From an uncultured Candidatus Bathyarchaeia archaeon (GTDB lineage: Archaea > Thermoproteota > Bathyarchaeia > Bathyarchaeales > Bathycorpusculaceae), in contig CAYVGZ010000001.1 in NCBI GenBank assembly GCA_964450845.1, positions 15,060-79,059 on the forward strand: DNA of 64,000 nt, written 5' to 3'. The first letter of the stretch is position 1; every line of letters begins with the position of its first letter. Of the stretch, positions 34,177 through 58,627 are shown piece by piece. The notes beneath the pieces were generated by a model. It was not told the origin of the DNA. It worked only from the letters and a program-made list of their open reading frames with translations, and did not search any database. The translations under genes and the position numbers were made by a program.

Positions 34177-34178
34177 AT

Positions 34179-37219: not shown

Positions 37220-37786
37220 ATGACTAAAAATACAACATTTTATAGAATTAAACATCAAAATAAAGAGATACTTTATAAAGACCTGTCTGTTAGTACTCTT
37301 TGCTACTTAGAAAATATTAAAAATGAGGTAAATAGAAACGAACTTGCAGCCAAAGCAAGCATCATATCTCCAACCAATTTAGAAGAAATTCCTTGGCCTA
37401 TCCTACAACAGGTAGGGCGCAATGCTATTGAAAACTCTGTCAAATATATATCAGACAAGCAGCTTTTTGAGATCTTAGTTAAAGAATATAGAGAAGGTTT
37501 AACAGATGGCAGCAGCCCGCTTAGCATGATTAAACATATAATGGTCGCATTTCCAGGTCAATCTATCACAGAACTTTTAAAACTAACATGGAAAGACCTG
37601 GTAGAATTAGTTTGTTTATCAGAAGAAGTCATTGGTAAAAGGATTTTTAATGTGGGTGGAGCCCCTGCTGCACCTAGAAGAAAAGGATCTAGACTTGTTA
37701 ATTCTAGTCTTTTTACTAATGATGGAAAAAGCCTACAAGAAAAGATGAACGAACTAAATAATATTCTTGGCGGAATTCCAAAATAA
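37220..37786 (+). CDS. Tail assembly chaperone-position protein (188 aa)
   Basis: SD AAGGAGGAG. TAATG-coupled to the 2052-aa gene. In the same frame as the 103-aa ORF. Confidence 0.35.
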   Translation: MTKNTTFYRIKHQNKEILYKDLSVSTLCYLENIKNEVNRNELAAKASIISPTNLEEIPWPILQQVGRNAIENSVKYISDKQLFEILVKEYREGLTDGSSPLSMIKHIMVAFPGQSITELLKLTWKDLVELVCLSEEVIGKRIFNVGGAPAAPRRKGSRLVNSSLFTNDGKSLQEKMNELNNILGGIPK

Positions 37787-40700: not shown

Positions 40701-43700
40701 GAATCTTTCTATCAAAGGTAATGCTAAGTATCTATTTGGAGGCCTAGCAAAGATAGCAGCTGGAGCCTTTGCTGTAAAGGCCCTAGATGCTGTTATAGCA
40801 GCTAATCCGTTGTTTGATGATACTGCACTAGATGCTGGTATAGGTGGCTTCCTAGCGGATAATGTGGCCCGTGCAAGGCTTGGACAATCAAGAGTATTTG
40901 ATGCATTAGGTTTTACTGGAATCGCTAAGCATATTAATGGACTAATGCCTGGATTTACTACTACAGCGCCAGGAGCAGTTATAGGTTCTGTTGTTTCTAG
41001 AACATTGGGTGGCGGTATGTTAGGCGGGTTTGCGTGGGGCGCAATTGGAAACAGAATATTAGCTCCTTATCTTCCTGACTTCACTAAAGACTATCAACAG
41101 CTAGAAGACGAGTACCAAGGAAAATCAGAAGTTCCAATTATGAAGGCACCAACGTGGCTTCTAGGCGCAACTCCATGGGAAGGATCTAAAGTAATTGGAT
41201 ATCAGCCTAACTGGTATGTAAGAATCAAGAGCCGCTGGAAGGAAACAGATACTCTATACGGTTCTACATTTAGAAAGCTTTTACATGAACCATTACCATT
41301 CTTAGGTATTTCTATTGGAGACTTTGTTGACCCATATTACATGGAAAGAAAGCATTATTTTTCTAGACCTTATCCAGAAACTGGCGAATGGGGAAAAGAA
41401 GTGCCTCTAGTTGGACCTTTAATTGCTGGAACTTTGGGCCGTATTTTCAAGCCAAAGAAAACAATGCATCAAGAGTTTTTAACAGGACCAAATGATTTAA
41501 GTGAAAATTCTACCTATCCGTTTGCTATACAACCTCCTACTGTACAAGAGCAGGAAGGTATGATGGCTCACGATAGAGGATTAAGGACTATGGGCGGACG
41601 CTCTGCCTTAATGGGCAGCTATGTATATGGTAGTGATTCTAAAATGTGGGCACACGCTGCTGGTGAAGATTTTTTAAACAATATTATGGACTTTACTGGT
41701 CTTCCTGGATTCCTAGCCAAGACCGCTCAAGGAAAACTTGTTAATAGACCGATAGTTATGCCTACCCTAGAAACTGCAGGTCGTATGGCATCAATGTCAA
41801 GGTCTTACTATGATATGAATCTAGGAGGTATGGGAGTATTTACAGAACCTGTTCGAAGATTAATTGATAAACCTGATTATAGAAGATATGGTTTAAATCC
41901 AATACCTAATATGATGCCAAACTGGTTACCAAATGAATTTTTATCAGGCGATCCTTACGCCAAGATAATTAGGGGAGAACTTAGGTTACCAGGTGCAGCG
42001 TACCAAGCTACTCATAAGGTTAAGAAAACAATGCCTGCTAGATCGTCTATGTTTGGTGCTCCAGAAGAACATATAATACAGTACTTCACTGGACTTCTTC
42101 CACCTCTACTAAAAGAAGAGTACGATATATTGTCTACTGGTACTACAATGCACGAGAAGATACAAGACTCATTAGCAGCAGAGGGATTATTGATTCAAGC
42201 AGAAGCAGTTGTGTATGATGTTAAAAATGATATATCTGGCCACGTTGATGCTATAGTTAGAGATGGGCAAGGCGGTAAAGGCAGAAGAGCGTTAGAAATT
42301 AAAAGTATAAACCAAGCTGCATTTGATAAACTAGAGGGGCCAAAAGACCAGCACATTGGACAGCTTAACTTTTATTTGAAAATGCTTAATCTTCAAAAAG
42401 GAACTCTTATGTATGTTAGCAGAGACAATCCTGCTAATGTCAAACTTTTTAATATTAACTATAGTAAGACTAGATATTTAAAAGACCTTAAAAAGCTTCA
42501 AAAGTCTAGACAGATCGCCGCCGACATGATGAAAGAAGGAGTAGATGATAAGTTTGGCTATGCATATTCTTGGCTAGATAGGCTTAATATCTTAGCTGAC
42601 GTAGGTCCTGCATCTCAAGAATTTAAAGAAGCAAAGTATTTTGTAGAACAACAAATTAAATACGGAATGTTGACTGACGCAGAAATAACTAAATATGATA
42701 AAGCGCTTAAACACAGACAAGCTAGGATTAGAAAGTATGAGCTCTATCCAAATAGATTTAAAGGTAAAATATTAAGTCCTGACCACGAAAGACAGATACA
42801 ATCTATTAATGAAGATATTAAAGCTGGTGTCGAATATACTCTTCCAGAAAGAGTAATAGGAGCAGCATGGGAAACTCTAACAAACTCTAATACGTTCCTT
42901 ACTAATAAATTATTAGCCTTTAAAGATCCTCTAGAACATTATAAAATGCTTCAACTTTATGGAAAAGAATATAAACCTTGGGATGAAGTTTATAACTCGT
43001 TTATTGATCCTGCACTTAAAGGTATGGCTGCACAAACTGGTCCTTTAGGTGGGGCCTATAAATTTGGAATGCCTGCTTATATGTTTTTAGGTAATATAGG
43101 TGCAGTTGCTGGAGGTCTTATTGGTGCTGGGTATGGCACAGTTCATGGATTATATAGACATTTTAGCGATTCTGCTTATATACCAGAACAAGTTAAAGAA
43201 CGAAGAGACATAGAGCAGTATTTTGACGAAGCTAAGTATGAACGTAATAGAAGAATGCTAGAGCTTTCTAGCGGCCTGGCTGCGAGAGAATATCAGGATG
43301 CTATGAATGCTACTCTTACTGCTTTTAATCAAAGTGGTGAGGACATAGCTAATCTATTTAGGGCTACTCCTTATATGGAAAAGCCGTATATTTCTGCATG
43401 GCTTGGTATTAAGAATAAAAAAGAAAGACAAGAAGTACTTAAATATATTCCTAAAGAGTTAAAGCAAGCACTAAAAAATCAATGGAACATGCTTGATCAA
43501 AAAGACGAAAATCAAGAATATGAAAAGTCGAGTAGTGAGTTTATAGCTGGCGGCGGATTAAAACATAAATTTGATAGGAGTATATTAGACCCTTCTGTTA
43601 GGCTTGAAGATATTAAACTAAAAACAGTTGAAGATGCTGGTTTTTCAGCCCATGATTTTGGACTTGGATGGAATGACCAGATGTATAGAATGCAAGACAA

Positions 43701-43944
43701 CTATAATAAGATTAGGTCAGCAGAAATAGCTCCAGCTCAAGAATACTCACCGCCAGATATTAATTCTGGTCAAGTAAGGCAGGCAATTATTAATATGATA
43801 CATCAGCGAAATTATAAGGGTTCTGCAGCTGTATATGTTAATGAAGGCGCAAACGATATTAATTTTTTAAACATTACAATTAGAAGAGATAGGTCCCTTA
43901 CTATAATTAATGCAATGAGAAACGCGTCACAGTACTATGGCTAA
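37786..43944 (+). CDS. Giant tape-measure-position protein (2052 aa) with embedded RecB/Cas4-like PD-(D/E)XK nuclease motifs
   Basis: Located after the chaperone-position ORFs. Has Gly/Ala-rich hydrophobic segments at aa ~30-230 and ~1000-1100. aa 1440-1560: STGTTMHEKIQ...ISGHVDAIVRD(D1488)...RRALEIKS(E1504,K1506)...HIGQLNFYL(Q1526,Y1530). Confidence 0.5.
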   Translation: MAQHNPYDTGSDYYDPYQNSQQAPGPNLGNLVLNAAKTMVVFGILNTVGRGASKVFSSKAASIVTRYSKTAATIQKATGANTLGGLFAGTSAGKEINKIFSGATKSFSSALKSKDAYVASVARTQGAGAAKIAGFKSSFKDMRTFAGTVGRAWKNTVWAGAGVAYAIDTFAGVTRDYGIKPKAWYDVPGQIGNFGKWLAINSIYCMGFKGATKFAQMAGSKGMQSVSNVFKGPLGKASAQFLERVLADGAPAGLRRTSSQGGTIFKKQIFDNIPQERVRSNFNQHFVSSGVRNMLAFGKTVPGAIRTLNETFHQFGQNFKDAISTDQVKIGRVLKRTLSDPVAGAIKQIKNQFRANRVMRKELSPVEHAGLNVLQFADDYAAKLGAGSQANKTRKEQVEFSVLARRIAKIGKAQQGRRILADKIFPELDRVTNRDLVDQDWVTRTQGVYAKHFGADRAKVFMDSILNMHAGLHMYKPKGGKIKGAGIDLSLFDPVYSLKKTMGRVLNKNIKVPFTNQDINFGDILQVNFLLKDSPSFDFFKGPQDFAIGENAKALTFRLDHGTVKSSSQLDKEAWFTIGMKGELAVVGPGGISIVKTGNKLGLSAPNSGLKKAERSRIERAVLGGEQGETRPLADTGNRFLDFFINKTQLSWPGIARRLGRKVVGAIEGKNAKFLDATTGFAGAFTDNPAEWYKRGDIIHAIKEATGQDVAALMRNGEFHSMLGKLSGATAFGDSFDVLYNARSLRDKLTDIEMKLGDEFGHWLNKRGIAEDVALIKADPTYAANHTTTKRLGHRMEMNPYDKVRLALVEDAFVDSFNVGDGIEHPVINAIPELLKKGAINEKQAKSLALFAKLSAFTNTGMYDRKNGMSPTGDILNAGRNILRRSHQLNWNIQQDIINYVKTSDFRSASVRDIGDIKVHDPNAFVFKNNTAYASIQMNPMGFAKDWVETVFDNVNNMLHDTIFPFRKDPTKNLSIKGNAKYLFGGLAKIAAGAFAVKALDAVIAANPLFDDTALDAGIGGFLADNVARARLGQSRVFDALGFTGIAKHINGLMPGFTTTAPGAVIGSVVSRTLGGGMLGGFAWGAIGNRILAPYLPDFTKDYQQLEDEYQGKSEVPIMKAPTWLLGATPWEGSKVIGYQPNWYVRIKSRWKETDTLYGSTFRKLLHEPLPFLGISIGDFVDPYYMERKHYFSRPYPETGEWGKEVPLVGPLIAGTLGRIFKPKKTMHQEFLTGPNDLSENSTYPFAIQPPTVQEQEGMMAHDRGLRTMGGRSALMGSYVYGSDSKMWAHAAGEDFLNNIMDFTGLPGFLAKTAQGKLVNRPIVMPTLETAGRMASMSRSYYDMNLGGMGVFTEPVRRLIDKPDYRRYGLNPIPNMMPNWLPNEFLSGDPYAKIIRGELRLPGAAYQATHKVKKTMPARSSMFGAPEEHIIQYFTGLLPPLLKEEYDILSTGTTMHEKIQDSLAAEGLLIQAEAVVYDVKNDISGHVDAIVRDGQGGKGRRALEIKSINQAAFDKLEGPKDQHIGQLNFYLKMLNLQKGTLMYVSRDNPANVKLFNINYSKTRYLKDLKKLQKSRQIAADMMKEGVDDKFGYAYSWLDRLNILADVGPASQEFKEAKYFVEQQIKYGMLTDAEITKYDKALKHRQARIRKYELYPNRFKGKILSPDHERQIQSINEDIKAGVEYTLPERVIGAAWETLTNSNTFLTNKLLAFKDPLEHYKMLQLYGKEYKPWDEVYNSFIDPALKGMAAQTGPLGGAYKFGMPAYMFLGNIGAVAGGLIGAGYGTVHGLYRHFSDSAYIPEQVKERRDIEQYFDEAKYERNRRMLELSSGLAAREYQDAMNATLTAFNQSGEDIANLFRATPYMEKPYISAWLGIKNKKERQEVLKYIPKELKQALKNQWNMLDQKDENQEYEKSSSEFIAGGGLKHKFDRSILDPSVRLEDIKLKTVEDAGFSAHDFGLGWNDQMYRMQDNYNKIRSAEIAPAQEYSPPDINSGQVRQAIINMIHQRNYKGSAAVYVNEGANDINFLNITIRRDRSLTIINAMRNASQYYG

Positions 43945-46900
43945 TTACAATCCTTTTAAACGACGAGACGACCAAGATAAAGAAGACAAGAATTGGTTTA
44001 TGAAAACCTCTATTAAAGTTGCTGCTGGCGCTGGTACTGCCTTCGGTATATATGGTCTATGGAAAATGAGAGGACCAGCTAAGAAAATTTTGGAAGAAGC
44101 AATGGATAAAGAAATGAAAAGAAAAATATCCATTGAACAGTCCAATAACATGGATAAGCACTCATTTGACATAGCTGAAAACTGGAATAAAGAACAGAGA
44201 GACCTTCTTAATGAGACTTGGGGAGAAGGAAAAAATCCATTCTTTGCTGATCCTAAAGAATCATGGGGAAAAGTAGATACGCCAGAATACACTAAGATAA
44301 ATATTTCTATTATTGAAACAGATATAATTTCTGACTTAGAACGCGAGGCATCATATCTATCGCCTAATGCAGAAATTAGAAAAATACAGCCAGGCGAGCA
44401 CTTTTCTGGAGCAGACTGGATAGCTATAAATAAAAAGAAAACAAAGATATTAAGAAAGGTTGTATCTCTTTCTGGATCAGAAGCAGAACAATTTGCTAGA
44501 CTTAGACAAGAGGCTATCGCTGAATACCTAGAAACCTATATGTTTACAGGCGTTGAACGAGAAGTTGCTGAACGTTTAGAAGAGATGTCAGAGCTTTCAA
44601 CATATTTTTCTAGTAAAGACTATCTTGATTCTGACCGTATTACTGATGGGTTTGGAAAAAAATCAGTTGATAGAATTACCACTATCCATAATGCATATAT
44701 GGAAGATAAGCAATATGCTGACATATATCAAAGAAAAATAAAACAACTATATAGAAGGTTTAAACTTTTTAGCCATAGAACTAGAACAGCTAAGATAGGA
44801 GAACCAGAACGAGTTCAATTTAATGGTGGAGGATATAGGAAGGCTCTTTATGGAAACATTCTAGGAGAAGTAATAGACCCAAAAAGCCTAGCGTCAAAAC
44901 CTCTATCTGCTCTTCCTTTGTTTGATAGCACTAATCCTGAAGTCAAGATGACCAAGGATATAACTTCTATGGGATCTAATAACTGGGGTCCAGAGAATAG
45001 ATTTAGCAAATTGCAGCAGACTAATTATACAGGTAGGATATTCAATTTGGATAAAACATTGAAAGGCTTACAAGACGAAGGAAATATTGCTGGATATTCT
45101 ATTACATTAATTGATTATGGTACTAAGTCGTTTCCAGATAAGAGGCTTAGAATTAGCTTGCTTCATACTGATGCCGCTATTGGTAAAAATAAAAGTTACC
45201 AAATAGAAATTCCGCTTGGAATTGATGGTAGAATACCTGGCGCGACACCTGGGCTACAGTATGCTGCAGAAAGATATCATATAGTTGGTAATGTGTATGG
45301 TAAGTCAGATGAGATGGTGCAGCTCATCAATACTACTGAACTTAATTTAATAGAAGTAGAAAAAGCTCTTAAAGGATCCTTAATGACAGGGTGGGATTCA
45401 TTTCAAGATAATCCTGATAAATTTGTTCGTCAAGTAAATAGAATGGTTCGTCAGATAATAGCTCAGAACGCTACAGCTAATGGCAGCAGATATGATTTAT
45501 ACAATGCTATGTCAGTAGACATACCCGCTATACGTGATCTTTTTGATTCATCAAGACCAAAGTTTGCTTCCGCTAGGAGAACAGCTGAAAGCTACATTTC
45601 TTCTGCAAGGGCAATGAAAAGAATAATTAATGCTAGGCATAATAAGAAAAAATCAGTAGTAATTAACTTAGACTTAGAAACATTAGATAATACTGGAGCA
45701 TCCCCTGGGGCCGCCATCCTTTCTAAAAACTCTCAGATTACTAAGTATGGTATAGTTGTACAAGATATGAATTCTGCTAAAATATTAGATCACTTTGAAG
45801 AATCTAACTGGTCTGGTTATAAGCATTTTAAAAATATCGACAATAGAAGGAAAGGCACAGGATTTAATGATAAATTAAGGAAATGGTTGAGAGACAGTGT
45901 ACTTCCCGAAGGTACACCAGTAGGTATGGAAGTTGAGGCATATGAAGAACTATTAAAAAATGAAGGTGCAGTTGATGTCGGAGACAGGACAGCTGTTGTA
46001 AAACGTATCACTGATAAAGTTAGAGCTATTAAAGCTGACCTTATGAAAAAAGGATATTCTGAAGACGAGATTTTCATAGCAACTAAGAACGGATTTATGT
46101 TCGACCTGCGCGCCATTAACATGGATGACCAAAGCTTTGCTAAGGAGTTTGAGGGAAACTTTATAGATATACAAGCTCTTCATGCTTTTAAAAATAATGC
46201 ACTTGGTGAAAATAATGCTCTAAACATTGAGCGCGTAATGCAACGCTTAATGGGGGAAATTGGCGAGCCAGGTGTTAACTATTCTATAAAAAATCAAGCG
46301 GGTATTACTAATATAATGAAGGCTCTTAAGAAAAAGGGAAGATCTATTCAAGGTGGAGGGACATCATTATTGAACTGGACTGATCCATTTTGGGAATATA
46401 AGGGCCGTGCTGGTATAGTAAAAGCTCACGGATCTCCTAGGGTAGACGCTGCGTTTGTTGCTGCACTATTAATGAAAGAAGTCGCTAGCTATACTGCAGA
46501 AAGCAGCTATCTAGATCACGCAGATTATATGGCTCGTCTTCTAAAAATGTCGTCTGGCCCAAGACGTCCAGAAGACCTTATAGAACTTTTTAGAATGATT
46601 AATGAGAAATATTTTGAAGGCTTTGGTGTAGCTAGTTTTAGAAGCTCTTCACAAAGAATGATATCAAATTTAGTTGCTAACTTTATTGAACCTGCTGAAA
46701 TGTCGGCGTTTGCTGATCCATATAATACAAGCGGAATTAGAAGAAGACATGCTATGCCCTTTAACTTGAGATTAAAGAAAAGTTATATTGATAAGTTTGG
46801 AGGTCCAGCAAATGCAGCTAATCTTCATAAGCAACATCTTGGCGAGTTTTTAATGACAACTAGTATAGAAGATGCAAACCGTGCACTGAACAACTATATA

Positions 46901-49900: not shown

Positions 49901-51004
49901 CATATGTTAGATGTTAGTGATAGAGTTGGACATGTATTAAATCTAATTGGTGGTATGGCATCATCTAGTCCAGCGTATGCTACTAGTGCTAGGGTTTCAC
50001 AAATAGCTGAGTCTCAAGTTAATACCTTGATATCTAAAGAACTTATACCTCTTACAACTAACCTTCTCAAAAAGAGAGTCAAGCAGATTTATGGAGACGC
50101 GCACATTAGAAAAAATCCATTACGTGTTCAAAACTTTGTTGGAAATACATTGCATGGCCTTGCTGGTATGGCTCAGTCTGTAATAGACCTGGCTAAGCAC
50201 CCAGAAGAAAGAGCTAAGTTATCTAAGGTTTTAAACTTTTTCACTACTGGTAAGGCTACACCTGAGGTTAAAGAATTATATTTAGAGCTTGAAAAAAAGG
50301 TAAAGGGTAGTGCCTTTGACGAAGAATTAGCTTCTGCTGACTTTGATATACTCTCTGGCCGAATAGAAGCAATTGAAACTGTATCTAAACGTAATCCTAC
50401 TTTCAAAATGCATGAAAATGCTAAAGATATGTACTACATGGGAAAACAGGGAGCTACGGTATTTGACTCACTAATGTTTGATAGCGATACCTACTTTGAT
50501 AATTTATTTAGTCCATCAAAGCCAGCGTCAGCAATGGACCAGTTAAATACTGCTTTTTCTAAACGACTTGGTAAACAAGTAGATATCTCTCCTGTGTTTA
50601 AAAAGGCAGGTAAATATGGCGCAATCGGTTCCGCTGTATTTATGGGACTAAGTTTATTTACTCCATTTGGAAATAGTAAGTCATTGAATCCTATAGATAT
50701 GTTTACAGATATTGGAGATATAGACGGTCAGCGATCTTCAATTTCAAGCCCATTAGAATTGTCTAGATCACAGCCACTAGATATGGTTAATGCCTCTTTC
50801 TCAAAAGAAGCATTCATACGTCAGAATAAAAGCAATTCAAAGAAAAGCCAAGGGGCTATTATGAACTCTATATTACAGAGCTCAATGCTATCTAGAGTAG
50901 ATGCTCCTTTTGAATTTCAAGTATCTTATAAAGGAACGTATTCGAACTATACTAAGAGCATCAATATGATTGGAACCAAAGAGCTTAAAAGGAAATATGA
51001 ATAA
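43937..51004 (+). CDS. Giant protein (2355 aa) with DnaQ-like DEDD exonuclease motifs and a two-barrel RNA polymerase catalytic DPBB signature (DFDGD)
   Basis: N-terminal TM helix. Exo motifs are VVINLDLET (D579/E581), KNGFMFDLRAI (D723) and AHGSPRVDAAF (H831/D837). Polymerase signature is ERFPIPQAGD (R1847-D1855) ... AIYVNPVYWAGQGGDFDGDIIFAQ (D1894/D1896/D1898). Confidence 0.6.
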   Translation: MANYNPFKRRDDQDKEDKNWFMKTSIKVAAGAGTAFGIYGLWKMRGPAKKILEEAMDKEMKRKISIEQSNNMDKHSFDIAENWNKEQRDLLNETWGEGKNPFFADPKESWGKVDTPEYTKINISIIETDIISDLEREASYLSPNAEIRKIQPGEHFSGADWIAINKKKTKILRKVVSLSGSEAEQFARLRQEAIAEYLETYMFTGVEREVAERLEEMSELSTYFSSKDYLDSDRITDGFGKKSVDRITTIHNAYMEDKQYADIYQRKIKQLYRRFKLFSHRTRTAKIGEPERVQFNGGGYRKALYGNILGEVIDPKSLASKPLSALPLFDSTNPEVKMTKDITSMGSNNWGPENRFSKLQQTNYTGRIFNLDKTLKGLQDEGNIAGYSITLIDYGTKSFPDKRLRISLLHTDAAIGKNKSYQIEIPLGIDGRIPGATPGLQYAAERYHIVGNVYGKSDEMVQLINTTELNLIEVEKALKGSLMTGWDSFQDNPDKFVRQVNRMVRQIIAQNATANGSRYDLYNAMSVDIPAIRDLFDSSRPKFASARRTAESYISSARAMKRIINARHNKKKSVVINLDLETLDNTGASPGAAILSKNSQITKYGIVVQDMNSAKILDHFEESNWSGYKHFKNIDNRRKGTGFNDKLRKWLRDSVLPEGTPVGMEVEAYEELLKNEGAVDVGDRTAVVKRITDKVRAIKADLMKKGYSEDEIFIATKNGFMFDLRAINMDDQSFAKEFEGNFIDIQALHAFKNNALGENNALNIERVMQRLMGEIGEPGVNYSIKNQAGITNIMKALKKKGRSIQGGGTSLLNWTDPFWEYKGRAGIVKAHGSPRVDAAFVAALLMKEVASYTAESSYLDHADYMARLLKMSSGPRRPEDLIELFRMINEKYFEGFGVASFRSSSQRMISNLVANFIEPAEMSAFADPYNTSGIRRRHAMPFNLRLKKSYIDKFGGPANAANLHKQHLGEFLMTTSIEDANRALNNYIMRTDDAVNHFSNAVLADTLYTLDLEKEPTLAVSEGLAKKYEQVKIVNLQTDTLVGDERVNAKILEFNRQVDKRAKEIAGGKFISPEIIEAAEKEVAGKGDWGIDLSSEILSAGKYGGEVKTRRKSLHGRIVSALLEPDKTSLGKTSVRRLLVKVEETISGRDIFFGSQAQTPASHALIGNITVLSEGISKRILGAGKDFVMSNTPEFLKKGHIGSAKDVMISGLLKKLYTDHETTTDPATKRSIKKLIDKITRALDATPDIEGNRVIFNKKDIAYSSDLKTRVLGSTDVRLKQIIQWYKQAGIVWNKTEIEDLHKNGFRFEATFKPYMDHFKKMSRLSDEQLKATYEGWEGLTKEGLNAARDDIKAFEKMMYDNVHNTEGSVKLFRVVPQIDQGFTLGILGYGPVALYRQDARGLTNKDLTFRQDYFLGLRHTYHGQDKTTMDFVARHTFASRFDTYKSVRRTYTRFLDQLFSERLTKEPLNINALDYLLDIKQRIALQSKEAEMASRKTWSNMSAGELAAAARDRDNLLEKKLELTGAEADALKRERLEIADALNAKEGGSRILENVKGIKRFYTTRDVAKLSEIAAENNGIVAFSLPVSNNALEIDLDQVVDRFQGQMPGKPKWDAKQITSAKDRLKSILRNKLKNSTKDSPLRFNEDGKLVLGALVMDWDPMAVNQFDRLRSVDAWRSNGSTEIKMNVLRALHEWQKVVKEAGGGMGTDVSAAQDKFIRAWTVFMLTGTNADKNSQFWKSGQYAPPSLKSYAADMTQLQRSVIQLEQSRPGAFKRYRQQFKLLKEARMDTVLISEEAFKKMRMVNQNGELVSAARMIEDHFKAQNSTIGKEIAEGRRLLPGGLIERFPIPQAGDRGMQTINYLVMPKKALEALGADANAIYVNPVYWAGQGGDFDGDIIFAQLKELGIFYKYKELREANDRTFQRILETPDMVDFMKNNQIVLDSKGNVTKEVKIGNMNSVLYSKGDKTLIHTYDLKGNAKQVWVGSHMLDVSDRVGHVLNLIGGMASSSPAYATSARVSQIAESQVNTLISKELIPLTTNLLKKRVKQIYGDAHIRKNPLRVQNFVGNTLHGLAGMAQSVIDLAKHPEERAKLSKVLNFFTTGKATPEVKELYLELEKKVKGSAFDEELASADFDILSGRIEAIETVSKRNPTFKMHENAKDMYYMGKQGATVFDSLMFDSDTYFDNLFSPSKPASAMDQLNTAFSKRLGKQVDISPVFKKAGKYGAIGSAVFMGLSLFTPFGNSKSLNPIDMFTDIGDIDGQRSSISSPLELSRSQPLDMVNASFSKEAFIRQNKSNSKKSQGAIMNSILQSSMLSRVDAPFEFQVSYKGTYSNYTKSINMIGTKELKRKYE
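50944..50955 (+). promoter_or_regulatory. GAACTATACTAA motif copy inside the 3' end of the 2355-aa gene
   Basis: The 15-mer GAACTATACTAAGAG is identical to 19436-19450. TATACT ends 51 nt before ATG 51004. Confidence 0.3.
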
Positions 51005-51186
51005 TGAGCACAATTGAAGCTAACATTACAATAGATATTCCTGATGGCATCGATCCACAAGAAATGATTAACTCCCTACGATATCAAATATCAAATATTA
51101 ATGGAAAAGATACACACGTTAATATAGTGGAAGTTGATAATCCTTTATCTTTAAGCCCAATTACAATGAAAAAAATTAAGGACTAA
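51004..51186 (+). CDS. Small hypothetical protein (60 aa) between giant genes
   Basis: TAATG-coupled ORF. Confidence 0.4.
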   Translation: MSTIEANITIDIPDGIDPQEMINSLRYQISNINGKDTHVNIVEVDNPLSLSPITMKKIKD

Positions 51187-51187
51187 C

Positions 51188-54100
51188 ATGGCAGGAGACG
51201 TAAAAATCAAATTTCTTAGCACTGAAAACCTACCAGCATTTGGCGAGATACTTCATAGAGCGTTTCTGAAGGAAGCTAAAGAGCTTTACGATGTTAGTAA
51301 AGACTATGAAAAGCCTGATGTATGGAATAAGGTAAAAGCTGCCATAAGTACAGTTTATGAAAAAGCAGGCTTAGCTAAATACGAGGATATTAAAGAAGGT
51401 TATACAGAGAGACTTAGGATAGGAGATATTGTCTTACTTGAAGACGACAAACGCGCCTATGCTGTTACTGGTATCAGCAATGATAATGTAAGGACATATC
51501 CTAGGCCTATTGCTAGGGATGTTGATTCACTTAAACCTTCAAAAATTGGTGGAAGAAGTGGAAGAGTTAAAAGACCAAACCTTAGCCAAATTAAAAGTGA
51601 GTCCTATGAGAATATAGTTTTAGAAAATTTGCCAGATGAAATTATTAATAGAGAAGCTAAGAATACTGCTACATTTAAAGCTATTTCTCTATCTGATGAT
51701 AGTACCCATTTGCAAATTGGAGATCTTATTCTTGGTGTAGACCCAATACAACTGTCATTTACAACTCAAAATGGCTACCAGTATTTCCCAACTTTACGCA
51801 CTAGTGGAAATCCAAAGCTTCCAACAATGCAGCAAATTAAGAATATAACTATAGTATTAATGTTTCCAAATGTAGACGCAATTAACTATCAGTTAATTCC
51901 TTTATATGCAATGTTCAGGCGCACCCCATTTGTTAATATTAAGAATAGAGACCTGCTTAGATTCTTTAAAGATGTAGCTAGTCCTACTGGTTATATTCCA
52001 GTTGCGTTAGAAAGTATTCAAATACAGTCTATTGACGGGTTCCCTAATTCTTTACAAGCAACTATATCCGTTCTTCCATTTGACCCAGGGCCAACATCTA
52101 ATGGAAGTCTTCAAGCATTAAAGAGCTTTGATGATGTTTTTATCCAGCAAGAAAGCTTGAGCAAAGATATAATTCTTAATAAGATGATAGAAACTGCTGA
52201 TTTGAAGATGCAAGACATATCATCTTTACCTACTACTTTTGATTCTTTAACTCAAATTGTTAGTGAAGCCAGCGAAAATTTCAAAGAAAGTTTTCCATTT
52301 AGAGCATTTTACCAATCCCTAATAGCAGGAAGAAAGTCTGTTTTAAATGAAAACGGAGAAGAGGCTAAGCTCTATAACTCAGATGACTCATCTGCTTTGC
52401 TTGCCAGCGATATCTCATTTTTGTCTCCAAGAAATAGAGAAAACTTCTTGCATGAATACAATATAGAAGCAAATAGAAAGCAAGTAGGATTTAAATATAC
52501 ATATGTAACTCTATTTGATAAAGATAAAAAGGAAACACCAAATCTTGCTGATATTGGAAAATACTTTTCAGATGAACGAATAGATAGTAGAGATAAACGC
52601 TTAGACTCATTCAGAAAGCTATTTGATGCAATAGGAAGCTACGAGGGCCTAGCTAATACTATGTTCTCTGCCTTTCATAATATGTCTGACGCATTTAGAC
52701 CTATTGAGTATGAATTTAGTAAGATGGACAATTTGGTTAATCATGTCCTAGCACTACATGGAGTTGATCCAAAGATGGTTGTTAAAGGTACTCCTAGCAC
52801 TGGCGCTGGATTTTTAACTAATCTTGGAAAACTTATGTCCTTTCTTACTAGAAGTACAATGCAACAAGTTGGAGTTGCTCCTATAGCTTCAGCTATAGAA
52901 GCTATTAATAAAAACATAGTAGCTGATGGTAAAATAGATTATAATAAAGCTGCGGCAGACCAATGGGCTCTTCTGAAAAAAGCTGGCCTGCTATATAATG
53001 AGGCTAATACTGGGGAACTAAGCAAGTATGGTATTCACACATTAGATGGAGCATTCCAAGCACTGTGGGCATGGATAGAAGAGGATAAAAGTGGTAAGCG
53101 TAAACAAGATTTTATTGTTGTCTTACAAGACATAATGAATGCGCTTAAAGGAGATCTTTCTACTTCTATAATGGTTGTAAACGCGGGTCAGTCTGTTGAT
53201 GAGTCAGAATATAAGATTGTTAGATTGCCAGTTAAAACTGTTGAATTCTATATAGATAACAAGACTGATGTTATAACGTCATGGTCTCTTGTATATTCTA
53301 ATAAGTTTGTTCCAATTAATCTCCTAGCGTATAAGTATCCATTTTATCAACATCTAGGATCAGACGATCCAACGTTATCTCTTTCTATTACATCTGTTCC
53401 TAATGGCGAAAGATTTGATCTAAAAGAACAGCTTGCTCTACTTTCTGACAGAATGTATGACTCTGTTAAGTTAGTTAATTATACGTCTCCTGACTTATAT
53501 ACTTGGATGGACCCTCGAGTAGAACTCGACTATGCTCCAGGACATATATTTCATTGCTTTGGAATTCATAAGGTTGTTTTAAACTCTTCTAATTCTACTA
53601 ATATACAAGGCCAACCAGATGCTTGGAACACAACAATTAATCTTACCCAAGCAAATTTTAGTCTTGAACAGTATCATAGCATTAGCTCGGCTAATAATTT
53701 AACTGAAATTGATGCTATAATTTCACAGCTAATTCCAAGACTTCGCATTGATGAAAGTGGAAACCTTACAGTCCTCGCGCTAAAGCATCCTACAGAAACA
53801 TTAACTTTAGATGAAGTAGTTTATCTATCATTCCTATTTTCTACTCCTGGTCAAAGATACGTTGAGCATGTTGACCAAATGATTAAAACATATGGAAAAT
53901 TAGAAAATTCAAAGAAAGTAACTGGTAAAGACTTAATTAACTTGCTTGCTCCTAAAATGAAATTGTATTATAGCATGGATCCAAATCAAATAGACAAAGG
54001 AGCAACTAAAAAACTTGAAGCTCTTTGTCTTGAAAATAAGAAGTTTAAAGGACTAATTACTGCTATAGCTAAAGAATACGAGCAGCTATTGGAAGTGCAA

Positions 54101-57100
54101 GCAGATGCTTTTATTAATATTATAGATAGAGAAAAATCTATATTTGAGCAGGTTGTCAAAGGAATTAGAGACTCGAAGAATGTTATAGCTGGCGCAGCTA
54201 TTGGAGCAGCTGGCCTAGATTATACTTTGCTATTTTTACTATCACTTGGTCCAGCTGGACCTTGGGCAGCGGCCGTAGGTGTAGGACTCATAGCTACAGG
54301 TGCACTTTTATATACTGGAGTAAATATAGGGGCTGAGCTTGCTAGGAACAAAGTAAAGAAAGACCTCTCAGCACTAGTTGCTAATATTATTAATGTATAT
54401 AAAAAAGAAATTTTGTTAGAGCTATCTAGAGCTATAGTAAAAGACCCTCCTATTAGGAGACGACTTCTTAGTAAAGAGTTCATATCTCTATTAAGACCAC
54501 CTACAGTTGATGGAGACCAAGTAGATATAGAAAAATATATATCACAAGTACAATATCAAAAGAGACTTAACTGTTATCCTGACTTTGACATGCCTGTAAT
54601 TTGGGAAAGCGCAGATAGGATATATAAAGCAAGTCCTGACTTTTATCTTTATAATTTTTCTAATCCTCAAACTTATATTAATACATATGTTAAAGAGAGC
54701 ACAGATAGACTAATTAAAATTGGTAAAATGGGAATGCAACTTGCCTTAGTTGAGCATAAAAACTTGTATGAGTCTCTAGAACAGCTGACAACCCAAGTTA
54801 GTAGTCAAGGTGATAAAAATATTCAGAATGTTTTATCTGGAGTATATACAGAAATTGGGTATGCAAACTCAGCAGATTCGTTTTTAAACCTTGCTCAGAT
54901 GTATAGATTGGTTGCTTTCAAAGATGAAAATATTAAGACAAGCGATGTATCAACAGAACAAGATACGACCTTTTTAACTGAACAAAGAAAAGAAGAGCTT
55001 ATAAAAGAACACGAATCAGTTAATTCTGAATTAAAAAAGACAAATCCTAAACTTTTTGAATATGAACAAACAATACTTAATTATATGCTTAGCATGGATA
55101 TTGCACCAAAGATTCAAGACACGAATATAATTAAGTATAACATTGTCTGGACTGCCAGAATGAAAACGTTGATAGAACTTATAGCACTCGGATATCAGAT
55201 ACAGACATACTTTGCTTCTGAAACTGCGTTAAAAGGAAGCATATCTGTTGCTGATAGTTCAGCTAAAAAAGACTTGAACAAATATGTAGAGCAAGAGAAA
55301 AAGAAGCAGCAATTGTCTGGACAAATTTTAGAAAAACTAGTTAGCTTAAAGGCTGATGTATGGGCAATTCTAGAAAACTGGAAAGATGCTACTTCTAAAA
55401 CAGTCAACTCTACTACTGATACTAGGTTTAAAACTTTAAAAAAGAAATATAATAAAGGCTTCTTTGCTGAGACTATTAATGATAGTAGCAAAGAAGAGTC
55501 TTCAGATTTTCTACAGGTGCCTTCTATTAGAAATTTAGAAGCTGAAGTATATAATAAAATAGGATTCTTTATTAGGCTTAATACAGTTATAGAGCTAGCA
55601 AATGGCGGGAACAGTGTGCTTAAACCATATAGTGGTAATGTTCCTAATCTATCTCTGGACTCCCTTCCTGAACTTGGTTTTATTGACGCATTTAACGTAA
55701 GACAGACTGAATCAGTATTTAGAGCACTTGAGATTGAGCGTCAACTATTTGACTCTATGCAGAAAAATAAGAACGTTACACTTAAGTATTTTCCTACATT
55801 TAAAATATTTTTTATAGAAGAAGAGAGTAAGAGATATCAAGTGTTGGATGATTACTATGCATATAATGCTGTGCAGTCTATAGAGATCTCAAAAAATAAG
55901 CATTCATCTAGCGTAGTTGCAGTTATACGACTAAACAATTTGAATGGTACAATTACAGATAAGTTGTCATTTCATCGCGAAAGATCTGACTTTATGCAAG
56001 CGAATGATTTCTTAAATGAAGATGACGCCTTTTTTGGAACGTTAGATGTTAAGCCTGGTACTAAAGTTCAAATCAAACTTGGATATGCTGCTAATGACAG
56101 CGATCTTCCTACGGTGTTTACTGGAAGAATTCTAGAAATGAACGCGGGACCAGTTACAGAAATCATATGTCAAAGCTATGGTGCCCAGCTAAATCATAAA
56201 GTACTTCAAACTAATGTTGGCTTCTTCTCATCAGAGAAAGAATATGGAGACATAGCATCGGCTTTGTTAGATATTATTCCAGGTCTTGAAAATCTAGGTA
56301 AAAAAGAAATTGCATCATTTGGACTTCTTAGTGGTTTTACTGGACGAGATCTTAAAAAAATTAGAACTAGTCTTTTCGACAATTTCTTATTAAGCACAGT
56401 GCTAGGACGTCTGACTGCTAATCTTCGCGGATTTGATAATCCTAGGGATGAAAATATTTACTTGCCATTTAATTTATCTATATACCCTAAGTGGAAACCT
56501 CGCTTTGACTGGGTAGTATATAACCAGAGCGTATGGGACTCTGTTAAAGAATTATGTTTATATTGTAATAATACTGAAGCTGTGATTAAACAGTACAATA
56601 ATGATCCTTTATCTCAACGAGGAGAACAAAGGGAAACTATCGTAATTGGAAATAAATCTGGATATTATAAGTGGACAGATTCTTTAGCTTTAAGCTCGAT
56701 TGATACAGATGATATAGATAATAGAATAGCAAAGTTTAAAGACATCTTATCTAAGGATGGTATTAAAAATCCTCAATTTACTACAGCTGGTAAACAATAT
56801 AAGCTTAAAGGAATTCAAACTCTTAGAGAAGATAAATATAGATTGTTATCTCCTCTTAAATTTGTTTACGATAACGTTAAGACAACTTTTCTTCCTAAAG
56901 GAATAAATAAACCAATAGGGTCTGAAGTCAAGTATGCTAATCTTAAGCCTGAATTTCTTCCATTGTGGGAATGGTTAAGCGATCCGTTAAATTCTAATAT
57001 TATAAAGAAACGACTATTAAATGAGCTCGATCTTACTATCAAAACTGTTTCAAACTTTGCAAGCGAAGCTTTTAAGCGTCAGTTTAAATCATTTGCTGAC

Positions 57101-58627
57101 CCCATTTCATCTATAATAGACAGCTTAGATAAGTTTTCTAGTAGTTCTATTGTCAGAGATCCTATTAAAGGCAACGTTGCTACTAGCCAAAAAGGCGAAT
57201 ATTTTCCAACTATAGTTTTCTTTATTAGTGCGATAGAAGGAATAGAAGGTAAATCAAACTTTTGGGACCTTTGTCCTGAAGATTTTTATTCAGTTAAGGC
57301 TGCTGTTGATAATTTAAATCCAGCACTATCGTCTGACATAAGATATAGAAAGATTCAGCAACATCATTTGGTCTCTGAGTCTATCAATCTTATTTCAAAT
57401 GATATATCACTGAATGCAAACTTTCCTAATAAGATTAATCTGTTCTACTTTGATGAACCACAGTTTATTTCTAGCATAGATGGGGTACAACCAGATAAAT
57501 TTAAGAAAATAAACATGTGGCCTATTAGATCTTTTGGAGATATTAAAGACGAACATATTAGAGAGCTAAACGTTTTCCAGAAAAACATAGACCCATACTG
57601 GTTAGACATTAAAGAGAGTACAGAAGGATTTTTCAAGGGATATAGAAGACTAATGGTTAAGGCTGCTGGAAAGAATAAAAAGAAAGGTGATACAGGTGCT
57701 GATAAAGTTGATAAATATATTGAGAGTATCAACAAAGACTTTGGCACCTTTAATATTAACACTCCAGACTGGAGAGCATTTCCATCTTATCAGATAGTTG
57801 GAGTTAATATCCTTAAAAAAGAAGTATCTAAAATGTACAGGGGTACTATTCAGATTGTAGGAGACCCAGAAATAGAACCACTTGATATTGTTCATATTCA
57901 AGATTATATTAATGATATGCACGGAGCGGTAGAAGTAGAAGAAGTTGTACATACCTTTACTCCAGATAGAGGTTTTATAACTACTATAACACCATGCTTA
58001 ATTACATATGATAGAGACCCAATACAATTAGAAGATGTATCTGTTATTAATAGAATATACGACGTAGCTCAAGCACACTCTAAAGCTACAGTATACAAGG
58101 TAATAGGAGGTGCGGCTGGAGCCATTGCTGGAACAGGTATGTTATTGTCTGGAAATCCTACAACAATGAGCGCTGCTGTTGGAGTTGGAGGACTTGGATT
58201 GCTTTCTTCTTTAAGTGGGTTAAGCGCCATATTTGGAAATAAATATCATAGATTCTTATACGATAGCCTTGGAAATATTCTTGGACGAGATGTAATTAAC
58301 TTTACTGCGCTATTATATCACGGTCTGCCGTTTATGTGTGGATTCGATGGAGTAGATTATACCAATCTTAAAACCTTAATGACACATAAAGCAGATAATG
58401 TTGAGGGCGGTATTATTTCTAGGCTGTCGGTCTTTAGTGACGAATTTGCAGCATGCATCTATACCAACTTTACTCCTGGTAATTTCACTCTTAGAGATGC
58501 CGTTGTTAATAAACTTGGATTCCTTAAATACTTCACTAATCTTCCGAGTGCTGGACAACTCAAAGACGGGTTTAGTTTTGGTGATAGATATTTACCTTGG
58601 AATAGATTAATTGGTAGCATTAGATAA
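51188..58627 (+). CDS. Giant baseplate-hub protein (2479 aa): gpD/gp27-like hub domain in the C-terminal third plus a ~1500-aa N-terminal extension
   Basis: aa ~1600-2330: GTLDVKPGTKVQIKLGYAANDSDLPTVFTGRILEMNAGPVTEIICQSYG and YRGTIQIVGDPEIEPLDIVHIQD...VEEVVHTFTPDRGFITTITP resemble P2 gpD/Mu gp44/T4 gp27-type hub blocks. Gly/Ala hydrophobic segments sit mid-protein and near the C-terminus. Confidence 0.5.
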   Translation: MAGDVKIKFLSTENLPAFGEILHRAFLKEAKELYDVSKDYEKPDVWNKVKAAISTVYEKAGLAKYEDIKEGYTERLRIGDIVLLEDDKRAYAVTGISNDNVRTYPRPIARDVDSLKPSKIGGRSGRVKRPNLSQIKSESYENIVLENLPDEIINREAKNTATFKAISLSDDSTHLQIGDLILGVDPIQLSFTTQNGYQYFPTLRTSGNPKLPTMQQIKNITIVLMFPNVDAINYQLIPLYAMFRRTPFVNIKNRDLLRFFKDVASPTGYIPVALESIQIQSIDGFPNSLQATISVLPFDPGPTSNGSLQALKSFDDVFIQQESLSKDIILNKMIETADLKMQDISSLPTTFDSLTQIVSEASENFKESFPFRAFYQSLIAGRKSVLNENGEEAKLYNSDDSSALLASDISFLSPRNRENFLHEYNIEANRKQVGFKYTYVTLFDKDKKETPNLADIGKYFSDERIDSRDKRLDSFRKLFDAIGSYEGLANTMFSAFHNMSDAFRPIEYEFSKMDNLVNHVLALHGVDPKMVVKGTPSTGAGFLTNLGKLMSFLTRSTMQQVGVAPIASAIEAINKNIVADGKIDYNKAAADQWALLKKAGLLYNEANTGELSKYGIHTLDGAFQALWAWIEEDKSGKRKQDFIVVLQDIMNALKGDLSTSIMVVNAGQSVDESEYKIVRLPVKTVEFYIDNKTDVITSWSLVYSNKFVPINLLAYKYPFYQHLGSDDPTLSLSITSVPNGERFDLKEQLALLSDRMYDSVKLVNYTSPDLYTWMDPRVELDYAPGHIFHCFGIHKVVLNSSNSTNIQGQPDAWNTTINLTQANFSLEQYHSISSANNLTEIDAIISQLIPRLRIDESGNLTVLALKHPTETLTLDEVVYLSFLFSTPGQRYVEHVDQMIKTYGKLENSKKVTGKDLINLLAPKMKLYYSMDPNQIDKGATKKLEALCLENKKFKGLITAIAKEYEQLLEVQADAFINIIDREKSIFEQVVKGIRDSKNVIAGAAIGAAGLDYTLLFLLSLGPAGPWAAAVGVGLIATGALLYTGVNIGAELARNKVKKDLSALVANIINVYKKEILLELSRAIVKDPPIRRRLLSKEFISLLRPPTVDGDQVDIEKYISQVQYQKRLNCYPDFDMPVIWESADRIYKASPDFYLYNFSNPQTYINTYVKESTDRLIKIGKMGMQLALVEHKNLYESLEQLTTQVSSQGDKNIQNVLSGVYTEIGYANSADSFLNLAQMYRLVAFKDENIKTSDVSTEQDTTFLTEQRKEELIKEHESVNSELKKTNPKLFEYEQTILNYMLSMDIAPKIQDTNIIKYNIVWTARMKTLIELIALGYQIQTYFASETALKGSISVADSSAKKDLNKYVEQEKKKQQLSGQILEKLVSLKADVWAILENWKDATSKTVNSTTDTRFKTLKKKYNKGFFAETINDSSKEESSDFLQVPSIRNLEAEVYNKIGFFIRLNTVIELANGGNSVLKPYSGNVPNLSLDSLPELGFIDAFNVRQTESVFRALEIERQLFDSMQKNKNVTLKYFPTFKIFFIEEESKRYQVLDDYYAYNAVQSIEISKNKHSSSVVAVIRLNNLNGTITDKLSFHRERSDFMQANDFLNEDDAFFGTLDVKPGTKVQIKLGYAANDSDLPTVFTGRILEMNAGPVTEIICQSYGAQLNHKVLQTNVGFFSSEKEYGDIASALLDIIPGLENLGKKEIASFGLLSGFTGRDLKKIRTSLFDNFLLSTVLGRLTANLRGFDNPRDENIYLPFNLSIYPKWKPRFDWVVYNQSVWDSVKELCLYCNNTEAVIKQYNNDPLSQRGEQRETIVIGNKSGYYKWTDSLALSSIDTDDIDNRIAKFKDILSKDGIKNPQFTTAGKQYKLKGIQTLREDKYRLLSPLKFVYDNVKTTFLPKGINKPIGSEVKYANLKPEFLPLWEWLSDPLNSNIIKKRLLNELDLTIKTVSNFASEAFKRQFKSFADPISSIIDSLDKFSSSSIVRDPIKGNVATSQKGEYFPTIVFFISAIEGIEGKSNFWDLCPEDFYSVKAAVDNLNPALSSDIRYRKIQQHHLVSESINLISNDISLNANFPNKINLFYFDEPQFISSIDGVQPDKFKKINMWPIRSFGDIKDEHIRELNVFQKNIDPYWLDIKESTEGFFKGYRRLMVKAAGKNKKKGDTGADKVDKYIESINKDFGTFNINTPDWRAFPSYQIVGVNILKKEVSKMYRGTIQIVGDPEIEPLDIVHIQDYINDMHGAVEVEEVVHTFTPDRGFITTITPCLITYDRDPIQLEDVSVINRIYDVAQAHSKATVYKVIGGAAGAIAGTGMLLSGNPTTMSAAVGVGGLGLLSSLSGLSAIFGNKYHRFLYDSLGNILGRDVINFTALLYHGLPFMCGFDGVDYTNLKTLMTHKADNVEGGIISRLSVFSDEFAACIYTNFTPGNFTLRDAVVNKLGFLKYFTNLPSAGQLKDGFSFGDRYLPWNRLIGSIR

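Follow-up and report, generated by a model that had tools for sequence, protein, structure and literature searches.

Three giant genes in a contractile-tail module

We analyzed a 64-kb window (the whole stretch of 64,000 nucleotides at positions 15,060 to 79,059 of contig CAYVGZ010000001.1) of a 196.6-kb genome. The window contains a block of three giant open reading frames (ORFs), here called ORF1, ORF2 and ORF3, the second of which carries an RNA polymerase (RNAP)-like core. An earlier annotation made from the letters of the sequence alone (hereafter the original prediction) had read this block as candidate enzyme cargo delivered through a contractile tail, and had placed it between chaperone-position genes on one side and gp25/J baseplate genes on the other. 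That position was borne out, and the coordinates and lengths of the giant ORFs in amino acids (aa) proved exact. Unless another phage is named, gp numbers below are those of Bacillus phage 0305phi8-36.

37786-43944, + strand: ORF1, 2052 aa, gp145 homologue with Gly/Ala-rich hydrophobic segments (four BLASTP high-scoring segment pairs to gp145, E = 1e-13 to 2e-20)
43937-51004, + strand: ORF2, 2355 aa, giant occupying the gp146 ('tape measure') slot; first member of a family of conserved length
51004-51186, + strand: conserved 60-aa ORF between ORF2 and the hub gene (a 55-63 aa ORF lies there on every related contig, including fragment contigs)
51188-58627, + strand: ORF3, 2479 aa, giant gp147-like baseplate hub (PHROG 20474, E = 9e-38; PHROG 8809, E = 2e-15)

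The junctions were also as originally described, with a ATGGCTAA overlap between ORF1 and ORF2 and TAATG overlaps between a 188-aa ORF and ORF1 and between ORF2 and the 60-aa ORF. A single-strand phage gene array fills the window, and all 37 ORFs of at least 150 aa lie on the + strand. Upstream of the block are genes for terminase, portal, major capsid protein, a 916-aa sheath and three tube-like paralogues, followed by two small chaperone-position ORFs. These chaperone-like genes directly precede ORF1, not ORF2, which itself directly precedes the 60-aa ORF and the hub. The block lies in a contractile-tail module.

The same nine-gene order is kept on five other contigs (35-213 kb), with products of ~100, ~180, ~2040-2440, ~2330-2414, 57-63, ~2430-2560, ~260-277 and ~170 aa followed by Baseplate_J. 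The ~170-aa gene is gp25-like where a Pfam match is on record, and Baseplate_J is out of view on contig L012. ORFs of 6-7 kb, in DNA of 36% guanine plus cytosine, are not chance products.

ORF2 founds a divergent family with invariant motifs

Full-length ORF2 had no match in Pfam, PHROGs, PDB sequences (phmmer and hmmsearch) or GenBank phages (tblastn), and a megablast search of GenBank phages with the whole block returned none either. Among 5.8e9 proteins we found only five homologues of ORF2, all full-length and 31-68% identical, while a profile search of 1.84e9 representatives returned 49 clusters, nearly all of 2234-2491 aa. No relatives were found in GTDB representative genomes or IMG/VR at the sensitivity used. 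Three short profile hits (P0040, P0045 and P0049) were considered as stand-alone YonO-like or non-virion paralogues and ruled out, being contig-edge fragments followed by the ~60-aa ORF; these fragments had no Pfam or phage matches, and no non-virion paralogue of ORF2 appeared in the family profile search. We also ruled out that ORF2 is a diverged gp146, with no similarity detected by hidden Markov model (HMM) or BLAST.

Residue conservation was derived from a MAFFT alignment of 42 full-length family members, in which core identity to the window protein falls to 15-20%. On the five syntenic contigs, identity to the window is about 47% over the full length for P0003 and P0004, and about 17-20% in the core for P0016, P0028 and P0041. 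Residues D579, E581, D723, D744, H831 and D837 are invariant (42/42), as are P1849, D1894, D1896 and D1898, with R1847 present in 39/42. Blocks near the N-terminus are also near-invariant in this alignment, and the C-terminus forms a further conserved module, which from its position may contact the hub or tail tip.

50612-50992, + strand: conserved ORF2 C-terminal module, aa 2226-2352 (about 30 columns at least 80% conserved in the 42 members; mildly hydrophobic stretch)

An RNA polymerase-type core in ORF2

The polymerase assignment concerns the following features of ORF2, with the modelled core in its last third.

48614-50311, + strand: two-barrel RNAP-like core, ORF2 aa 1560-2125, as modelled with AlphaFold2
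49442-49651, + strand: beta-prime-type double-psi beta-barrel with catalytic loop, ORF2 aa 1836-1905 (DFDGD at 49616-49630)
50024-50206, + strand: helical blocks downstream of the barrel, ORF2 aa 2030-2090 (K2034, T2041, N2042 and R2047 at least 80% conserved; Q2080 and K2087 in 41/42; H2088 in 39/42)
47528-47551, + strand: K1198-G-x2-G1202-x2-K1205 block (K1198 in 41/42, G1202 in 40/42, K1205 as K in 39 and R in 3 of 42)

The ORF2 stretch 'ERFPIPQAG...NPVYWAGQGGDFDGDIIF' carries R-x-P...DxDGD, the signature of the beta-prime double-psi beta-barrel. This signature is listed for all two-barrel RNAPs, its R-x-P corresponding to R446 and P448 of Rpb1 (PMC2919709). R1847 and P1849 match the conserved R-x-P, and R1847 lies 47 residues before D1894.

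A first AlphaFold model (aa 1200-2200, 6 sequences) had a predicted local distance difference test score (pLDDT) of 51 and was too poor for use. The second, an AlphaFold2 model of aa 1560-2125 built from 31 diverse sequences, reached a pLDDT of 78 and a predicted template modeling (TM) score of 0.61. Using this core model, Foldseek returned 509 matches in the PDB at E <= 1e-3, and the top 50 were all RNAP largest subunits (E ~2e-7, probability 1.0), drawn from bacterial beta-prime, cyanobacterial and plastid gamma, yeast Rpa190 and archaeal RpoA chains. Fold matches in BFVD were RNAP subunits of giant viruses and jumbo phages, LEF-9 and crAss-like proteins (E ~3e-3), along with one 'minor tail protein' of an uncultured siphovirus.

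Profile comparisons landed on the catalytic loop. Among weak profile hits to PDB sequences, 35/37 were beta-prime or gamma chains, aligned on NADFDGD. In local hhalign runs, the sub-profile of the catalytic barrel (DPBB-A) aligned with gp96 of phage P23-45 over 57 columns (probability 60%, E = 8.5e-5) and with residues 442-471 of Escherichia coli beta-prime (E = 4.8e-4). Per-member Pfam scans of the family's RNAP region (31 core sequences) gave nothing meaningful. We conclude with high confidence that ORF2 holds a beta-prime-type catalytic barrel under strong purifying selection. The RNAP barrel of the original prediction is confirmed by the invariant motifs and by the Foldseek search of the model.

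For the second barrel, the candidates are a beta-rich stretch at aa 1643-1813 of the model and the near-invariant K1198/K1205 pair, which may supply that barrel's two basic residues; the K1198-K1205 block gave no significant alignment to rpoB or gp96. Long helices occupy aa 2030-2090 of the model, and the domain order described in PMC10770324 makes the conserved blocks there candidates for the bridge helix and trigger-loop base. No alignment supporting that assignment of the helical blocks was obtained.

YonO/QDE-1-like RNAPs resemble ORF2 in being single polypeptides with a DxDGD barrel, and the R-to-D spacing of 47 in ORF2 is nearer that of QDE-1 (45) than that of cellular beta-prime. Those enzymes are stand-alone proteins of about 800-1400 aa (1218 aa for gp99), whereas the ORF2 barrel is embedded in a tail-module giant. 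Membership of ORF2 in the YonO-like family (PF05183) was ruled out, as there was no Pfam match and hhalign against gp99 was negative at the catalytic loop.

A probable exonuclease upstream of the core

45614-46486, + strand: DEDDh-type 3'-5' exonuclease candidate, ORF2 aa 560-850 (D579-x-E581, N718-G-x3-D723, H831-x5-D837)

Upstream of the core, the motifs of Exo I (DxE), Exo II (Nx2-3[FY]D) and Exo III (Hx4-5D) follow one another as in DEDDh exonucleases, and in a similar local context. With hhalign, the ORF2 KNGxxFDL block was set on the true Exo II motif of DnaQ (E = 0.42) and RNase T (E = 0.027), neither of them significant. Based on the motifs, we regard a DEDDh exonuclease as a likely assignment for this region. 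The original prediction had named a DEDD exonuclease in ORF2: its motifs are present, in order and invariant, while significant profile or structural similarity was not obtained.

Cultured phages share the layout, and two of them the motif pair

A tblastn search of GenBank phages with ORF1 and ORF3 matched a small set of jumbo myoviruses, comprising the Bacillus phages 0305phi8-36, Edson, vB_BceM_WH1 (WH1) and vB_BauM_KLEB27-3 (KLEB27-3), Moorella phage MTATph1 and Acinetobacter phage ME3. The gene order of 0305phi8-36 is sheath, tube, tube paralogue, gp143, gp144, gp145 (1930 aa), gp146 (2537 aa) and gp147 (1903 aa), so that the window shares its order from sheath to baseplate, with three giants after two chaperone genes. 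In the EF583821 record, gp143 and gp144 are annotated as hypothetical tail chaperonins, gp146 as 'hypothetical tape measure' and gp147 as 'baseplate hub'. Both gp145 and gp146 were identified as virion proteins by mass spectrometry (PMC2147016; EF583821 record). Hardies et al. tied gp147 to T4 gp27 and P2 gpD by profile comparison, and called gp146 a tape measure mainly on tail length (PMC2147016).

The same giant triad is present in Edson, WH1, KLEB27-3, ME3 and MTATph1. The original prediction had known of no equivalent arrangement in a contractile-tail gene cluster, and had suggested a search for the triad next to sheath and baseplate genes. Such a search recovered it in the 0305phi8-36 group and in the five related contigs: a triad between chaperones and baseplate is the standard layout of that group. 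Because 0305phi8-36 and its cultured relatives share it, the three-giant layout is a lineage trait described in 2007 and not new. Most likely the block comes from an uncultured clade of myoviruses with genomes of roughly 200 kb, to which 0305phi8-36 is a distant relative.

Within this shared layout the middle protein differs. ORF1 is homologous to gp145, including its nuclease motifs, and ORF3 to the gp147 hub, whereas gp146 is unlike ORF2, with no detectable similarity and no DxDxD or DEDD motifs. Phage 0305phi8-36 has instead a stand-alone YonO-like RNAP, gp99, which is the sole RNAP listed for it in the jumbo-phage survey of Iyer and Aravind. Its gene orf99 (L017:8027-11683; L numbers designate the compared sequences) is separated from the right terminal repeat by no more than the small ORF100 and reads inward into the genome. 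This placement would suit an early-entering gene in a relative whose slot protein has no polymerase motif.

In contrast to gp146, the middle proteins of two cultured Bacillus phages carry both motif sets. That of Edson (2515 aa; L004:7838-15385) has R-x-P...DHDGD at residue 1996 and matches the family HMM (E = 1.3e-6), and gp034 of KLEB27-3 (2434 aa; L007:22274-29578) has DYDGD at 1933, with a sub-threshold Pfam RNA_pol_Rpb1_2 match exactly there (E = 0.015). In both, D-x-E, N-x3-[YF]-D and H-x4-D occur in canonical form close to the N-terminus. WH1 gp095 (L008:10593-18140) equals the Edson protein in length and was judged by gene layout and annotation only. The slot proteins of Edson, WH1 and KLEB27-3 are annotated no further than 'hypothetical' or 'structural protein', the latter being the label of KLEB27-3 gp034.

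The middle proteins of Edson, WH1 and KLEB27-3 occupy the same slot as ORF2 and are of similar length (2434-2515 aa). In Edson and KLEB27-3 the R-x-P...D[HY]DGD signature lies at the same relative position, with the DEDDh motifs upstream. These two proteins are otherwise extremely divergent from ORF2, the barrel alone being detectable; their exonuclease motifs lie at aa ~110-390 compared with 560-850 in ORF2, and their ORF1 homologues, unlike the window ORF1, have no nuclease module.

Such conservation bears on the possibility that the three giants are essentially structural (ruler, tail-lumen plug and hub) and that their enzyme-like segments are inactive relics or structural adaptations. The slot is filled without a DxDxD motif by gp146, ME3_36 and MTATph1 CDS0027, the length of the ORF2 family is as tightly conserved as expected for a ruler, and Pfam and PHROGs recognize nothing in ORF2. 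However, the metal-binding aspartates and five DEDDh residues are invariant (42/42) at 15-20% core identity, which argues for purifying selection on catalysis rather than relics, and the same motif sets persist in the distant Edson and KLEB27-3. We therefore consider a purely structural role very improbable. The C-terminus of the Edson middle protein is homologous to that of gp146 (E = 2e-4). Together with the presence of DxDxD in some slot proteins and its absence from others, this suggests that the slot protein is a scaffold with a replaceable interior.

A second alternative accepts catalysis but assigns it elsewhere. The two-barrel enzyme of ORF2 might not be a DNA-dependent transcriptase, but a primer-making or RNA-dependent (QDE-1-like) enzyme, or a PolD-like one with a DEDDh proofreader, that repairs, fills or primes genome ends on entry or in replication. 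Two-barrel cores are also found in eukaryotic RNA-dependent RNA polymerases (RdRPs) and archaeal PolD (PMC10770324, PMC7824862), and it is DNA polymerases that typically have a DEDD 3'-5' exonuclease fused to the polymerase. Consistent with this, the only natural PDB matches of the KLEB27-3 N-terminal region were to the exonuclease domain of RB69/T4 DNA polymerase, at Exo II (E ~0.3), and the exonuclease-polymerase pairing is kept in both deep branches of the group. By contrast, the top fold matches were all to DNA-dependent RNAP beta-prime, not PolD or RdRP, the closest pairwise sequence match was to a proven transcriptase (P23-45 gp96), and no link to the YonO/RdRP family was found. We judge a non-transcriptase role improbable.

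Two relatives show insertions at the middle gene. On one contig (L014:16980-17765), a 261-aa ORF with a faint LAGLIDADG match sits between the ORF2 homologue and the ~60-aa ORF, indicating that homing elements invade the tail module. In MTATph1 (L006), the middle gene at 21564-28920 is seemingly split into CDS0027 (1309 aa), a transposase and CDS0031 (313 aa), and at its C-terminus CDS0031 matches the same end of the middle proteins of Edson and KLEB27-3.

A nuclease module in ORF1, and the ORF3 hub

42124-42489, + strand: PD-(D/E)xK (RecB/Cas4-like) nuclease module, ORF1 aa 1447-1568 (PHROG 1706, E = 5e-20; PHROG 2506, E = 4e-10; PHROG 1990, E = 9e-6)

ORF1 has clade homologues at 35-63% identity. 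It contains the D...ExK core and QxxxY of RecB/Cas4-family PD-(D/E)xK nucleases, and 6/6 clade members share the motifs GH-V-D, L-E-I-K and Q-L-N-F-Y without change; gp145 has them too. The best PHROG match (E = 5e-20) and these conserved catalytic motifs confirm the RecB/Cas4-like nuclease of the original prediction. The four-cysteine iron-sulfur cluster of Cas4 was not found, as ORF1 aa 1440-1600 is free of cysteines, so the module is RecB/lambda-exonuclease-like and not Cas4 proper. The whole nuclease module is missing from the ORF1 homologues of Edson, KLEB27-3, MTATph1 and ME3.

The ORF1 homologue on one related contig (L013, 2688-10001) contains a canonical 406-aa intein that starts with Cys and ends with His-Asn, followed by Ser. 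It is inserted after the equivalent of ORF1 aa 1420 (window ~42043-42048), about 27 aa before the nuclease module and within a conserved 'TMPAR|SM.G..EEHI.QYFTG' segment, and thus marks a functionally important site of ORF1.

ORF3 lies upstream of the gp25/J genes, as hubs do, and aligns by BLASTP with the central part of gp147 at ORF3 1471-1793 (E = 2e-15) and 2202-2306 (E = 5e-11). By tblastn it also matches the hub genes of ME3, Edson, WH1, MTATph1 and KLEB27-3. Compared with gp27 or Phage_GPD profiles it had no Pfam match at E <= 1, and there was no PDB sequence match. The gpD/gp27-like hub of the original prediction is accordingly upheld by homology to the gp147 hub, not by a direct profile match: a gp27/gpD-type identity for ORF3 is supported transitively, through gp147.

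Gly/Ala-rich hydrophobic segments, previously ascribed to each giant, were seen in ORF1 (aa 27-45, 982-1000 and 1764-1782) and in ORF3 (aa 999-1045 and 2302-2349, two transmembrane-like pairs); ORF2 had none above the hydropathy threshold. The 60-aa ORF before the hub aligns with its counterparts over a conserved MS.IEANITID..DG.D...GK.T..N..EVD[DN]P[LI]S pattern. We take its position to recall the small LysM-type gpX proteins of P2 and pyocin baseplates, as a lead only.

ORF3 has no recognizable Pfam enzyme domain, whereas gp147 (L001:30269-35980) carries NlpC/P60 and M23 lysins. Other hub homologues carry different enzymes again: a staphylococcal nuclease in Edson (L004:15399-22358), a staphylococcal nuclease and M23 in ME3 (L005:25206-32195) and VanY in MTATph1 (L006:28932-35609). 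The three giants are most likely conserved scaffolds bearing exchangeable enzymes.

The free exchange of enzymatic domains in the module (the ORF1 nuclease present or absent, the hub enzymes varied) would also suit injection of the giants mainly as anti-host or anti-defence effectors, like the injected multidomain 'polyvalent proteins' described previously (PMC7824862). On that account host DNA, RNA or signalling nucleotides would be degraded by the nucleases, and the polymerase-like domain would have some part in conflict other than transcription. The pairing of RNAP and exonuclease, however, is not swapped in this way: it is constant throughout the ORF2 family and is found again in the Bacillus-phage branch, which points to a core function. 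We give an effector role for the giants as a whole little credence, although for ORF1 and ORF3 it is compatible with ORF2 being a tail-delivered virion polymerase.

Neighbouring genes in the window

The following genes flank the block.

36848-37159, + strand: 103-aa tail-chaperone-like ORF (BLASTP to the gp143 C-terminus, E = 1e-6, and the gp144 N-terminus, E = 3e-6)
37220-37786, + strand: second chaperone-position ORF, 188 aa, assigned by position only; its stop overlaps the ORF1 start (TAATG)
58638-61215, + strand: downstream baseplate genes (260-aa ORF; gp25-like gene, 59420-59950; Baseplate_J gene, 59959-61215)

An ORF of ~100 aa occupies the position of the 103-aa ORF on all five related contigs. 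The 188-aa ORF had no Pfam or PHROG match, and an ORF of 175-188 aa is kept at its position across the clade. Downstream, the gp25-like gene matched GPW_gp25 below the Pfam threshold (E = 4e-4) and the Baseplate_J gene matched its Pfam family at E = 4e-18; the downstream baseplate genes also matched PHROG 975 and PHROG 6.

Upstream, the three consecutive tube-like paralogues (245, 382 and 502 aa; window 32228-35687) share PHROG 9206, which is labelled 'major head protein' but corresponds to the tube genes of 0305phi8-36. The 916-aa sheath is unusually large. Just 5' of the chaperone-position genes, a 379-aa ORF (window 35687-36826) has an acidic, low-complexity N-terminal half and a C-terminal 'SAHRDGRAID...EHIHIQF' segment that resembles M15/VanY zinc peptidases; it may be a tail-associated lysin, and had no Pfam or PHROGs match.

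Farther upstream, a 1656-aa ribonucleotide reductase (RNR)-like ORF (window 280-5250), with matches to the RNR barrel and the B12-RNR insertion, is broken up by Intein_splicing, LAGLIDADG_3 and Hom_end domains, probably representing two inteins. Upstream of the terminase gene are an HNH/homing-endonuclease-like ORF (8090-8608; phrog_559, E = 9e-17) and an endolysin-like ORF (9894-10358; phrog_465, E = 1e-20). Cumulative GC skew climbs monotonically over window positions 1-64000, in which no tRNA or tmRNA genes were found.

A candidate virion polymerase delivered through a contractile tail

Virion RNAPs, which explain how some phages start transcription independently of host enzymes, are known from podoviruses (N4 and crAss-like phages), from phiKZ-like jumbo phages (as capsid-packaged multisubunit enzymes) and from siphovirus P23-45. 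The giant virion-packaged polymerases of crAss-like phage phi14:2 (gp66) and N4 (gp50) are injected with the DNA, and gp66 is a single-chain two-barrel enzyme; however, these phages are podoviruses and carry their cargo genes elsewhere than in a contractile-tail cluster, and N4 gp50 is T7-like, of an unrelated fold. No link to gp66 at the sequence level was found, and no search aimed at one was made.

The original prediction cited podoviral precedents only, whereas a tape-measure-fused RNAP was already known in siphovirus P23-45, where gp96 is the proven transcriptase of pre-early genes (PMC10770324). Its authors suggest that the flat, clamp-less enzyme passes the tail channel and transcribes the pre-early genes at the entry pore (PMC10770324). 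P23-45 gp96 is a single-chain two-barrel RNAP within a giant tape-measure-slot protein, as ORF2 is modelled to be, and the two align over DPBB-A (R-x-P...DFDGD). ORF2, in the gp146 position, shares with gp96 the placement of an RNAP domain within the protein of the tape-measure slot. No homology to gp96 was found in ORF2 beyond DPBB-A. The siphovirus tail is non-contractile, whereas that of the window is contractile; the gp96 RNAP occupies the N-terminal ~1100 of 5002 aa, compared with the last third of 2355 aa for the ORF2 core; and gp96 has no exonuclease domain, whereas ORF2 has a candidate one.

What is new relative to P23-45 is the contractile tail, the other domain order, the added exonuclease and a separate family seen only by motif and fold. 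No known virion RNAP, to our knowledge, has anything comparable to this invariant candidate exonuclease. In the searchable literature we came upon no account of a two-barrel RNAP occupying the tape-measure slot in a phage with a contractile tail, and the combination of such an RNAP with an exonuclease in this slot is apparently undescribed.

Of the readings of the block, delivery of enzyme cargo by way of the tail has the best support. More specifically, we lean towards a tail-core and hub module of ~200-kb myoviruses in which ORF2 is a tail-delivered virion RNA polymerase. Through its two conserved termini, ORF2 would be incorporated into the interior of the tail or baseplate, and contraction of the sheath would expel it. 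At the entry site it would then act as a virion RNAP and, by analogy with gp96, make the first phage transcripts independently of host RNAP. Probable tasks of the two nucleases, of ORF1 and ORF2, would be to process the DNA end as it enters or to attack nucleic acids of the host, and they may ready a single-stranded template at the entering end.

Several points weigh against a tail-delivered polymerase. We infer the virion location and ejection of ORF2, as well as its polymerase and nuclease activities and their roles; gp146, the slot protein verified by mass spectrometry, is not detectably homologous to ORF2. The second (beta-type) barrel gave no hhalign signal for aa 1560-1830 or 900-1330 against rpoB or gp96, nor was it found by local hhalign against rpoC and gp99, which leaves the main gap in calling ORF2 a complete polymerase. 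TM scores to beta-prime were low (~0.2), as expected when a 566-aa core is aligned to chains of 1200-1500 aa. The exonuclease region had no PDB or per-member Pfam profile match. Domains of this size, once folded, are difficult to accommodate in a tail tube, and the middle gene of MTATph1, broken by a transposase, suggests that the slot protein may not always be essential. Finally, a second, non-virion RNAP and early promoters could lie in the part of the 196.6-kb genome beyond the 64 kb analyzed.

A stronger version of a tail-delivered polymerase, which we hold to be doubtful, is that a whole clade of roughly 200-kb contractile-tail phages, including Edson, WH1 and KLEB27-3, loads a self-contained 'first-transcription kit' in its tail core, in which the ORF1 nuclease, the ORF2 exonuclease or both would resect the entering end and an ORF2 polymerase, anchored at a membrane-spanning hub, would transcribe the exposed single strand. 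If true, there would be two firsts: delivery of a virion RNAP by way of a contractile tail, and a two-barrel RNAP that carries its own exonuclease partner.

Since Pfam, PHROGs and BLAST all miss the family, counts of such enzymes in phage genomes are probably too low. Distant members occur in cultured Bacillus phages, which makes the hypothesis directly testable. A two-barrel core in a contractile-tail slot would raise the physical question of how a folded enzyme of more than 850 residues travels through a contracting tail or alongside it. It would also extend the virion-RNAP strategy to the tails of myoviruses, and the 'tape measure' slot of the 0305phi8-36 group would be re-read as a scaffold for swappable enzymes.

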